A DNA stretch of 63,753 bases, filler included, from Stramenopiles sp. TOSAG23-6 (lineage: Eukaryota), in assembly GCA_900128565.1 (NCBI GenBank). It is 23 parts of 23 records of this genome, joined end to end, with 100 filler letters (N's around TTAATTAATTAA, not from the genome) between each part and the next. Parts side by side here need not be neighbours in the genome. Positions count along the whole stretch, not along the records: positions 47,280 to 49,943 come from LT637882.1; 22 more parts are not named here. One strand, 5' to 3'. Positions 47,280 through 49,943 of this stretch are shown here, piece after piece (position 1 is the stretch's first letter; every line of letters starts with the position of its first letter). The notes under the pieces were generated by a model. The model saw only the letters and a program-made list of their open reading frames with translations, ran no database searches and was not told the origin of the DNA. A program made the translations under genes and the position numbers.

Positions 47280-49943
47280 TTCGTACGAAAAATAAATTCG
47301 ATTTTTTTGTAAAAAAAAAAATAAAACATACATGATATTTTCTGATGAATTTTCTACTACATTATCTACTATTTTTTTTGAATTTTGAATTTGAGATCCT
47401 ATAGAAATATTTTCTATTCTAATTCTTGTCAAATAACCATGTATTTTGGAAAAATATTTCAAAATTTTTTTACCAAAAAAAAAAAAAATTTGTTAGGTAC
47501 AAAATTTTTTTACCAAAAAAAAAAAAAATTCGACTTTTTTGTAAAAAAAAAATAATAAAACATACATGTCGACCAAATGGAAGCTCAACTCCTTGAGGTA
47601 TTTTAGGAATTTTAGGAGGTATTTCAGGAGAAGTAGTGCATTCATTGTAACATGTATCTAAAACTTTTGTCTCTGTAATAGAATCTAAAGATTTATTCTT
47701 TAGGCTTGACAATAATTCCGAATCATTACAATTTTCATCATTTACTACAGTTGTATTAAACACTTGTACTGGTATGTACATTCTAGATGTTAGTGAATAC
47801 ACACCAAATACAGGAGCATGATCACTTATATCACAACCTTGAACTTTATGCACTGCTTCATATACATATTTCATATTTGTCTTGTCATTGGCTACTACTG
47901 ACACTAATCCTACTTGTTTATCATGTTGTTGTTGTTGTTGTTTATCATGTTGTTTATCATGTTGTTGTTTATCATGTTGTTGTTGTTGTTGTGGCATTGG
48001 ACAAAGGATACCTGGATCATACATATCCTTTTTTGCATCTGAAAAAGAAAGTTGAGAGTAAATAATTCGATCACACCAGCCAGGACAACGTTCTTTGACA
48101 CTTCTACCTTTATATATGGGTTCTTTATACAACGTACGATAGACTTTTCGTGGCCAATCTACTCGAATCATTTCGATTTCATCATCTTTTTCAAGTTTAA
48201 TTGGAGATAACGGAACATCATAAATTTCATCATTTTTTACATTTATATGCGCACTCTTTCGTACAGACTGTCTTGGTGTATTGCACCAATTGGAGAGATT
48301 CTCATTTCTACCTTCATATAGCTTATGTATTGTGAATTTTTTTTTTTTCTGATTTTTTTTTGTTAGGTACAAAATTTCATACGAAAAAAAAAAACATTGG
48401 AAATGAATTATAAAAACGTACATATGTAGGAAAGAAGTTATCTGCTTTTTTAGGTTCTTTAAACCCAACCCATGCATTACCCATTTTCTGATCTAATCGA
48501 AAAGTGTCATAATCATCATGTAAATGACGTAATTTTGTCTCACCACCACCGATACAATTTAAAACATTTTCAGTAGTTACATGTATTTTGAAAAAATATT
48601 ATTTTTTTTTTTTTGGAAAAAAAGTTCGTTAGGTACAAAATTTGCTATGAAAAAAAACAATGAAGAAAAAAATCATGATGTAAGACATACACTTTCCAAT
48701 CTGTAATTTAAATCACCCATCCAAACTAAGTTATGAAATTGTTGATTCAAATCAAAATGTTTATCACCAAGTCGATTTCCAAGTCTATTCATAATATCCG
48801 CTATTTGAATAATTCTTGCTGCAGGGTTCATGGATTATGAAAAAATATTTCAATAAAAAATTCGTTAGGTACAAAATTTCGTACATACATGGCTTCCAAA
48901 TGACAATTTACAACACAAAGAGTTGAGTTGTATATTTGCATCACAACGCCGACGGCACCTTTAGAACCCATTTTCCCCATTGGACAAATCGCAGATACAC
49001 AACAACGTACTAATCCAGATTCTAACAAGGATTTACGACAATATATAGCTAAACCTGTGAATTTTGTACCAATAAGTGAACCATCACCATGTATTGGAAA
49101 ACAATATTTTTTTTTTTTGGTAAAAAAATTGTTAGGTACAAAATTTCGTATGAAAAAAATATTTAGGTAAAAAAAAAAAAAATCAATTATGAAAACGTAC
49201 ATGACCGTGAATATGTTGAATTTCCGCATTTGGCAGTCGGATGATTGGATCTCCACCATCGGCCAAACTTCTATTAATAAGATATTGACCAAGGCATTGA
49301 AAAGGAATTTCGGAAACGCATTCCTGAACACCAAAGAAAAAAATATCACAGTCATGACTCACCCATTCTTTCCATAACGCAGTACTAAAATATATTGTAA
49401 AAAAATATTTGAAAAAAAAAAATCTAAAAAATTTGTTAGGTACAAAATTTCGTACGAAAAAAAAACTTGTAGAAAAAAAAATTGCAGATGAAAGCGTACA
49501 TGACTTTTATCGCGACAGATATCCGAAGCGCCTAAATTCCATGTTCCAAACCAAATTTTTGTTTTTGAAATTGGTCTAGATTTATTCGCTGCAATACTTA
49601 TTCTAGGAATTCTATGTGTATTCATGGATTATGAAAATAAAAATTTGTAAAAAAAATCGTTAGGTACGAAATTTCGTATGAAAAAAATTCGAAATTGAAA
49701 AACATTGAAAAAATAAAACAAACATTCTTTCCTGTTCCACTTTAGTAAATAAATTAGAGAGGTTTGTACCCTTTTCAGGAAAAAATGAATCGTTGCGTTC
49801 AGAAAATAAAGAAGATCTCGTGTTTAAAGAAGTCAATGAATTTCGCCGACTTGGTGAAAATGATTCCAAAACTTTTTCTAACGACTTCAACATGTATTGT
49901 AAAAAAAATTAAATTCGAAATTTGTTAGGTACAAAATTTCGTA
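47280..49943 (-). CDS. Inositol polyphosphate 5-phosphatase, internal part, at least 9 introns
   Basis: GTWNLG, GVQEC, KGAV, VNCHL, WMGDLNYR, PTY|K, PGWCDRII, SDHAPV; GT-AT introns 47439-47565, 48325-48421, 48581-48690, 48830-48888, 49089-49200, 49390-49499, 49624-49723. Confidence 0.92.
48325..48421 (-). other. GT-AT intron in the FxPTYK motif
   Basis: CCT ACA TAT|GTACGTTTT...CACAATACAT|AAG. Confidence 0.92.

Follow-up and report, generated by a model that had tools for sequence, protein, structure and literature searches.

Can a gene be interrupted by introns that all begin with GT and end with AT, and if so, what would remove them? The question is raised by a predicted inositol polyphosphate 5-phosphatase gene of Stramenopiles sp. 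TOSAG23-6 (assembly GCA_900128565.1), held on the minus strand at positions 47280-49943 (contig LT637882.1) of a 63,753-nucleotide stretch of DNA, hereafter the window. Eight exons and seven complete introns are present on the contig, with a truncated intron at each contig end. All seven complete introns end in AT, their removal restores one open frame that aligns with a full-length homologue, and excision of two of them is visible in environmental RNA. We consider it likely that the contig carries nine copies (seven complete and two cut) of a family of introner-like elements of ~100 nucleotides (nt), whose removal would fall to a spliceosome of the major type that tolerates YAT as the 3′ terminus.

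The window consists of 23 contigs of ~2.7 kb with 22 linkers between them (N44-TTAATTAATTAA-N44; e.g., 47180-47279 and 49944-50043), so that genes adjacent in the window are not genomic neighbours. The interval 47280-49943 is one entire contig of 2,664 bases, with an N-linker on either side, and the gene is therefore cut at both ends, both cuts falling inside further introns of the same kind. Its parts, in the direction of transcription, are the following.

49892..49943, minus strand: 3′ part of the upstream intron, cut by the contig end; GTACCTAAC core present; terminates ...ACAATACAT
49724..49891, minus strand: first exon present on the contig (exon 1), 168 nt; N-terminal, little conservation
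49624..49723, minus strand: intron 1, 100 nt; GTTTGT...TCCAT; the least secure of the seven
49500..49623, minus strand: exon 2, 124 nt; WFGTWNLG
49390..49499, minus strand: intron 2, 110 nt; GTACGC...TATAT
49201..49389, minus strand: exon 3, 189 nt; FFFGVQE
49089..49200, minus strand: intron 3, 112 nt; GTACGT...TACAT; junction HGH/GDGSL ungapped against the orthologue
48889..49088, minus strand: exon 4, 200 nt; SKGAVGV and NCHL; PF22669 profile positions 107-138
48830..48888, minus strand: intron 4, 59 nt; GTATGT...TCCAT; excision visible in an RNA contig
48691..48829, minus strand: exon 5, 139 nt; WMGDLNYR; PF22669 profile positions 145-182
48581..48690, minus strand: intron 5, 110 nt; GTATGT...TACAT; excision visible in an RNA contig
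48422..48580, minus strand: exon 6, 159 nt; terminates ...FFPTY
48325..48421, minus strand: intron 6, 97 nt; GTACGT...TACAT
47566..48324, minus strand: exon 7, 759 nt; PGWCDRI, SDHAPV and two lineage-specific insertions; PF22669 profile positions 234-286
47439..47565, minus strand: intron 7, 127 nt; GTATGT...TACAT; junction GRH/GYLTRI against GRHGYVTRI in the orthologue
47332..47438, minus strand: exon 8, 107 nt
47280..47331, minus strand: 5′ portion of one more intron, AT/GTATGTTTT...; broken off at the contig end, within the palindrome TTCGTACGAA

Every complete intron starts with GT(A/T)(C/T)G, contains the conserved GTACCTAAC core and ends with CAT or TAT. An earlier note on this DNA, made from the sequence alone, had placed seven AT-ending introns here, four ending in TACAT, two in TCCAT and one in TATAT, and all of them were recovered at the same places on the minus strand. 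Their removal yields one open frame, as the note had proposed, with the other two frames filled by stops, and the motifs that it had named follow one another in order along the product (GTWNLG, FGVQE, SKGAVGV, NCHL, GDLNYR, PTYK, WCDRI, and SDHAPV). We agree with its judgement that frame-keeping by chance is unlikely: for seven junctions the probability is about (1/3)^7 = 1/2187, a figure in which the absence of stops is not yet counted.

Because short repeats overlap both boundaries, the boundaries can slide by 1 to 5 bases without any change to the mRNA, and the terminal dinucleotides depend on the placement chosen. Across equivalent placements, GT-AT is the sole pair that fits all seven introns, with TG-CA fitting six and AT-AC three. 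An AT-AC reading was accordingly rejected, since it fits 3/7 introns only and is contradicted by the RNA join at intron 5 described below.

Evidence for the junctions and the encoded protein

Two public runs hold part of the stretch, both of them seawater metatranscriptomes (X1 and X2), the latter from a poly(A) library, and contigs of both were aligned to the 2,664-base contig. In X2, a 151-letter contig matches positions 48506-48577 and then 48688-48766, skipping 110 nt with no other letters, and a second join links 48760-48828 to 48888-48969, skipping 59 nt with one other letter in each piece; the joins have 69-82 letters on each side. The two skips correspond to introns 5 and 4 shifted by 3 and 1 bases, respectively, both shifts lying within the boundary ambiguity, and no equivalent placement of either intron ends in AG or reads AT-AC. 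That the introns are real, as the earlier note had held, is thus borne out at introns 4 and 5, where spliced RNA contigs agree with the model within that ambiguity.

The X1 data are dominated by the introns themselves, with most of the 969 aligned contigs lying on intron repeats. One of them (record 7, 49457-49659) covers exon 2 together with both intron flanks and represents either pre-mRNA, that is, unspliced RNA, or DNA carry-over. Long-range joints between intron copies in X1 were considered as splicing and set aside, their short sides (20-29 letters) marking them as repeat cross-matches. Summed X1 depth reaches up to ~15,000 over intron repeats (49416-49504 and other intron bins), with 0-47 in most exon bins; the high intron depth most likely reflects the copy number of the element and is uninformative on the expression of the 5-phosphatase gene.

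The homologue comparison extends the evidence to junctions beyond those seen in RNA. A HMMER search with exon 7 returned 87 proteins at E-values up to 0.001, and the best full-length homologue, P0122 (1,050 amino acids), was compared with the spliced product, assembled by coordinates. The product matches P0122 with an E-value of 2.6e-111, including a continuous stretch in which residues 74-333 align with P0122 residues 367-624 (independent E-value 2.7e-89). Alignment to orthologs was among the checks that the earlier note had named, and P0122 passes through junctions 2-7 without a gap; junction 1 falls in a poorly conserved region. Junctions 3-7 read as follows, with the slash marking the splice.

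Junction 3: product HGH/GDGSLIGTKFTG; P0122 GRGDGSLLATKYTG
Junction 4: product NCHLEA/MNPAAR; P0122 NCHLLANNREGR
Junction 5: product NYRLES/VTTENVL; P0122 NYRLEGVSCSDVL
Junction 6: product FFPTY/KLYEGR; P0122 FFPTYKMFEGR
Junction 7: product PFGRH/GYLTRIRIE; P0122 PYGRHGYVTRIYLE

These data bear directly on whether the locus could hold ordinary GT-AG introns with other boundaries, or be a repeat-riddled dead gene whose open frame is coincidental. In-frame AGs do lie downstream of intron 1 (12 nt) and intron 6 (3 nt), and three family members elsewhere in the window seem to end in AG (near 3896, 4521, and 55009). However, the RNA joins rule out every AG-ending reading for introns 4 and 5, and the nearest downstream AGs of introns 2, 3, 4, 5, and 7 (at +5, +34, +11, +42, and +14, respectively) would each break the frame. 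Use of the AG at intron 6 would remove the K of PTYK, which is kept in 6/6 aligned homologues, and the catalytic motifs are all intact in the spliced product. We therefore regard GT-AG introns or a decayed gene as highly improbable and retain the GT-AT junctions.

The identity of the product as a 5-phosphatase, also put forward in the earlier note, is upheld by several lines of comparison. The family PF22669 (Exo_endo_phos2) is matched by exons 4, 5, and 7 in collinear order, each exon alone scoring 20.9-24.6 bits, under the 27-bit cut-off; an existing partial model of the locus, P0121, scores 53.4 bits. P0122 combines a PH (pleckstrin homology) domain, PF22669 (101.1 bits) and an EF-hand, and matches the solved chains of SHIP2, OCRL, INPP5B, and SHIP1 with E-values of 1.7e-15 to 2.5e-11. 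The signature motifs of 5-phosphatases are GDxN(Y/F)R and P(A/S/G)W(C/T)DR(I/V), and both are present in the product, exon 5 contributing WMGDLNYR and exon 7 PGWCDRIIY, aligned with the same motifs in six homologues. Judged from these similarities, the contig is predicted to hold the catalytic part of an inositol polyphosphate 5-phosphatase gene. The two lineage-specific insertions in exon 7 are a segment of ~35 residues that follows PTYK and a run rich in Q/HDK, and an X1 contig (48144-48314) spans the first of them unbroken.

The locus has two existing gene models, P0121 and P0208 (EukProt GSMAST32...2288.1 and ...797.1, respectively), and both misread it. P0121 (287 amino acids) begins in exon 5, reads "RLESTKL" in place of "RLESVTTENVLNCIGGGETKL", removes part of exon 7 and translates on into intron 7. 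P0208 (437 amino acids) takes exon 3 in the wrong frame, reads through intron 3 and mis-joins intron 4. Between them, exons are dropped and false splice sites are set at introns 4, 5, and 6, and neither model uses any GT-AT junction, in line with the expectation that a gene finder restricted to GT-AG would fragment or miss this gene. A second mis-modelled gene in the window encodes a glycoside hydrolase of family 47 (GH47; 20710-21852, minus strand), whose model P0001 splices out 20 in-frame, genome-encoded residues (QYGYVPEDYDFRQKKLLSRS).

An intron family across the window

The introns of the 5-phosphatase gene belong to a family that recurs throughout the window. With at most one mismatch allowed, 50 occurrences of the core TTTGTACCTAACRA were counted there, against 0.09 expected, and the looser pattern GTA[CTG]CTAAC occurs 55 times. 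A full-length alignment of 17 introns, 85-130 nt long and drawn from several contigs, has a median pairwise identity of 0.73 (range 0.55-0.94). Their consensus runs from GTAYGTTTT through a variable T-rich stretch, the conserved core of ~30 nt, TTTTTTCRTAYGAAATTTYGTACCTAACRA, which includes the CTAAC branch-site motif, and a second T/A-rich stretch to AAATATTTTTYCAMAATACAT. Two subtypes with linked 5′ and 3′ ends can be distinguished, GTATGT going with CCAAAATACAT and GTACGT with CACAATACAT; such linkage is expected of copies of source elements and not of independently evolved signals. By these alignments, one sequence family appears to form the introns of unrelated genes, which is the mark of an introner-like element.

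AT ends prevail beyond the focal contig as well. A census examined 27 sites and retained 21 rows, for which a weight-matrix score of 12.5 or more and no fewer than 25 open codons to either side were required; 19 of the 21 rows end in AT, as do 36 of the 46 sites in a looser census, with the qualification that the 3′ matrix was trained on AT-ending introns and the counts lean towards AT. The two remaining rows, which end in TT, are the same intron counted twice, apparently called three bases too short. Sixteen of the rows, representing 15 distinct introns, lie beyond the focal contig. The exon bases preceding the intron are AT in 18/21 rows.

The three family members that by eye seem to end in AG lie near 3896, 4521, and 55009, all on the minus strand (CAATATAG, CACTATAG, and CACAAAAAAG, respectively), so that AT and AG ends would coexist in one family. 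Other members show rearranged structures. Some introns hold two tandem copies of the core (5863-6004, minus strand; 11478-11658, plus strand), an internal duplication of the element, and at 8618-8765 (plus strand) the next exon starts with GTACGTT like the intron itself, an 8-nt repeat; two adjacent or nested introns may be present. Telomere-like CCCTAA repeats stand just past the 5′ end of an intron (GTACGTCCCTAACCCTAACCCTAA...) at 44202-44322 (plus strand), with a short run near 5205 (minus strand). On the contig that precedes the focal one in the window, an FKBP-type gene (47090-47180, plus strand) ends ...GAAGCTATCAT/GTTTGTTTTTATCATGAA, the latter being the start of an intron of the same family, after which the contig breaks in poly-T. 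A candidate for an element-free intron in the GH47 gene (~19735-19780) falls at a poly-T collapse or gap and was discarded as unusable.

The family also coincides with breaks in the assembly. Contig ends often lie inside an intron element, at the palindrome TTTCGTACGAAA (e.g., 47280, 49943, 50044, 13973, and 5603-5626), and the repeat family probably fragments the assembly. Searches outside the window yielded no related loci: the 22-base core had no exact match in metagenome contigs, and a protein-guided metagenome scan with exon 7 gave 374 pattern stretches, none of which was confirmed by tblastn.

Splicing signals and the machinery of removal

What signals, then, do the introns offer to a splicing machinery? 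All seven 5′ sites are GT with a GTRNGT-like extension (GTTTGT, GTACGC, GTACGT twice, and GTATGT three times), and each intron contains CTAAC, a putative branch motif, 35-54 nt from its 3′ end. On the sense strand, T accounts for 49% of the intron bases, and the GC content of the introns is 18.7% compared with 33.7% in the exons. None of the seven ends in AG; AT stands at the end of all seven and is confirmed by RNA for two. Between CTAAC and the 3′ end, three to six AT and up to three YAT (0-3 per intron) are bypassed, among them a CAT 7 nt upstream of the 3′ end of the RNA-verified intron 4, and at intron 2 an AG five bases past the junction is ignored, as judged by frame and homology. A rule of taking the first AT is thus excluded, and the information must lie in an extended 3′ motif or in the position at the end of the element.

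These features suggest a mechanism in which each copy would supply its own GTAYGTTTT 5′ site, a core bearing CTAAC and a T-rich tract, and would be excised from RNA exactly from GT to AT. Removal would be carried out by the major (U2-type) spliceosome, with a 3′ recognition that accepts YAT, the extended 3′ motif being recognised instead of the first AG. The family itself may have spread as a mobile element.

The same terminal dinucleotides would also be compatible with the minor (U12-type) spliceosome, for which GT-AT is a rare boundary class and which is lax about the last intron bases, and the ACCTAAC core loosely resembles the U12 branch consensus. In U12 introns, the distance from the branch to the 3′ end is usually short. 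None of the seven introns carries the U12 5′ motif [AG]TATCCTT, the starts being GTAYGT-like throughout. In Physarum, GT-AT introns make up 17% of the non-canonical introns, and these non-canonical introns are mostly U12-type (10.1101/2020.10.12.336362), but the branch A lies 9-12 nt from the 3′ end, compared with 35-54 nt for the putative branch A here. The introns thus share their terminal dinucleotides with U12-type GT-AT introns and differ from them in the 5′ motif and the branch-to-3′ distance; because the motif is absent from 7/7 introns and the distance is long, we rate the minor spliceosome as quite unlikely.

Another way of removal would dispense with a spliceosome altogether, by pairing of the intron ends and other machinery, as for the nonconventional introns of Euglena, or by excision from DNA. 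Base pairing between the 5′ and 3′ ends (AUGUAU with AUACAU) is indeed feasible and is seen in four of the seven minimum-energy folds; a short palindrome is formed at the junctions, with exonic AT plus GTAT pairing with ATACAT, and short repeats overlap both boundaries. Yet the folding energies are ordinary with respect to shuffled sequences (z from -1.5 to +0.3), and the terminal stem shows no co-variation in the TCCAT introns. The GTAYGT start, the CTAAC core and the T-rich tract would moreover be needless for non-spliceosomal removal, and the X1 contig with exon 2 and its intron flanks is consistent with pre-mRNA, with DNA carry-over being possible. On this balance, we hold non-spliceosomal removal or DNA excision to be very unlikely and prefer removal of introner-like copies by a major-type spliceosome accepting YAT.

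Several points weigh against the preferred explanation. The RNA joins concern 2/7 junctions, in two 151-letter contigs at depth 2 from one run, and were taken from the table of aligned pieces and not from the joint table; a strain without introns 4 and 5 would yield identical RNA contigs. The in-frame AGs at +12 nt of intron 1 and +3 nt of intron 6 keep a GT-AG alternative frame-compatible for these two introns, and the training of the census matrix favours AT. A search of the whole window against Rfam gave no match at gathering scores and no small nuclear RNA, and we infer the type of spliceosome from cis signals only. As to mobility, the inverted repeat at the ends amounts to just 6 nt (ATGTAT/ATACAT), two of which are exonic. 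The direct repeat across the boundaries has a mean length of 3.62 nt in 21 introns, compared with 3.37 ± 0.16 nt when partners are permuted. The direct repeat is probably a shared AT/CATG consensus and not a target-site duplication particular to each copy, and that consensus fits a fixed insertion target and a splice-site preference equally well.

Host, known parallels and significance

The organism behind the window can be placed through the GH47 gene, which lies on another contig and matches EukProt "GSMAST32.ASY1.ANO1.141.1" at 94%, the two being identical wherever both overlap and differing in the 20 residues that the model splices out; the next matches, at ~50%, include Phytophthora, Ectocarpus, Peronospora, and Heterosigma. 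From these protein similarities and the seawater source of both RNA runs, the host is most likely an uncultured marine stramenopile represented by a MAST-3 single-cell assembly, of the kind described in PMC5778133. A Fritillaria (tunicate) origin, to which the YAY signature of the introns had pointed, was rejected on the strength of the protein matches. The window is AT-rich (GC 0.24-0.40 in 2-kb steps), and several of its contigs duplicate or nearly duplicate one another: 30691-31887, 58361-59557, and 61122-62318 hold identical long open frames, 32094-32756 corresponds to 59764-60426 and 62525-63187, and 19495-20868 resembles 20707-22044. The assembly is redundant, as is common in co-assemblies of single cells. 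One further contig (55518-58283, plus strand) is filled entirely by an open frame of ~900 residues with Ser/Gly-rich repeats (…SGSI…SGN…).

The closest published parallel is found in the tunicate genus Fritillaria, in which AT is the commonest 3′ end (34% of introns in F. borealis and 44% in F. pellucida), the final three intron bases are YAY, a triplet often also seen just ahead of the 5′ splice site, the U12 system has been lost, and duplicated U2AF subunits recognise non-canonical 3′ ends (PMC13326754); the introns have been attributed to transposons resembling miniature inverted-repeat transposable elements (PMC11282704). The introns described here likewise end in YAY in all seven cases (CAT six times and TAT once) and are preceded by YAY in five (CAT four times and TAT once, with AAT and AGT not fitting), and both hosts are marine plankton. 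In contrast to the very diverse Fritillaria introns, whose main classes are AG/AC and AG/AT, all seven introns here open with GT and are members of a single sequence family, and the nearest proteins are from stramenopiles and not from a chordate.

The introners of Micromonas and of Aureococcus, itself a stramenopile, offer a second parallel, being short, multi-copy, non-autonomous elements that constitute whole introns in many unrelated genes (PMC7789003, PMC11282704). They have canonical splice motifs, unlike the AT ends found here, and carry terminal inverted repeats and direct repeats of constant length (PMC7789003), whereas here the inverted repeat is ~6 nt and the boundary repeat is indistinguishable from the shared consensus. 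In the marine alveolate parasite Amoebophrya, more than 60% of introns are non-canonical, and its repeated introns have inverted repeats at their ends as well as direct repeats of 3-5 nt that overlap the boundaries (PMC7789003). The present family shares with them repeated non-canonical introns and short direct repeats overlapping the boundaries but differs in its uniform GT-AT ends and clear CTAAC core, Amoebophrya having variable boundaries and no dominant dinucleotide pair.

In the literature on MAST-3 introns, we found no report of non-canonical or GT-AT splicing, supplements and most subscription journals lying outside the coverage. The accessible portions of PMC5778133 and 10.64898/2026.04.17.719054 contain nothing on splice sites, and the words "intron," "splic," and "canonical" are all absent from PMC12614181, on the MAST-3 species Incisomonas. 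The part available of PMC9903769 describes gene calling with default splice handling. A search of the literature on GT-AT introns and stramenopile introners found nothing on a GT-AT introner family. What is known, then, is that transposon-like, non-canonical spliceosomal introns exist; what would be new is the uniformity of GT-AT ends in a marine stramenopile.

The GT-AG rule is near-universal in eukaryotic introns, and organisms that break it wholesale in nature are rare (Fritillaria, Amoebophrya, euglenids, and diplonemids). We lean, by a modest margin over an even chance, towards the view that in this MAST-3 stramenopile a YAT rule largely replaces the 3′ AG rule genome-wide, carried by a proliferating introner of ~100 nt that brings its own 5′ site, branch site and extended 3′ motif. 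If so, this stramenopile would have left GT-AG independently of Fritillaria, as a second case converging on the YAY signature, which would imply altered 3′ splice-site recognition, in the small subunit of U2AF or in second-step factors. A uniform GT-AT family, with a single motif each for the 5′ site, the branch and the 3′ site, would also make a cleaner natural experiment than the diverse Fritillaria introns, since with a single motif set it becomes directly testable which factor reads the 3′ end. Published MAST-3 gene catalogues would then be systematically mis-predicted. Table 1 of PMC5778133 gives 3,289 and 2,694 predicted genes in ~19-21 Mb for MAST-3 assemblies and, for comparison, ~8,000 in ~32 Mb for MAST-4A. 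Functional and biogeographic inferences drawn from MAST-3 gene sets may need re-annotation that allows non-canonical splice sites.

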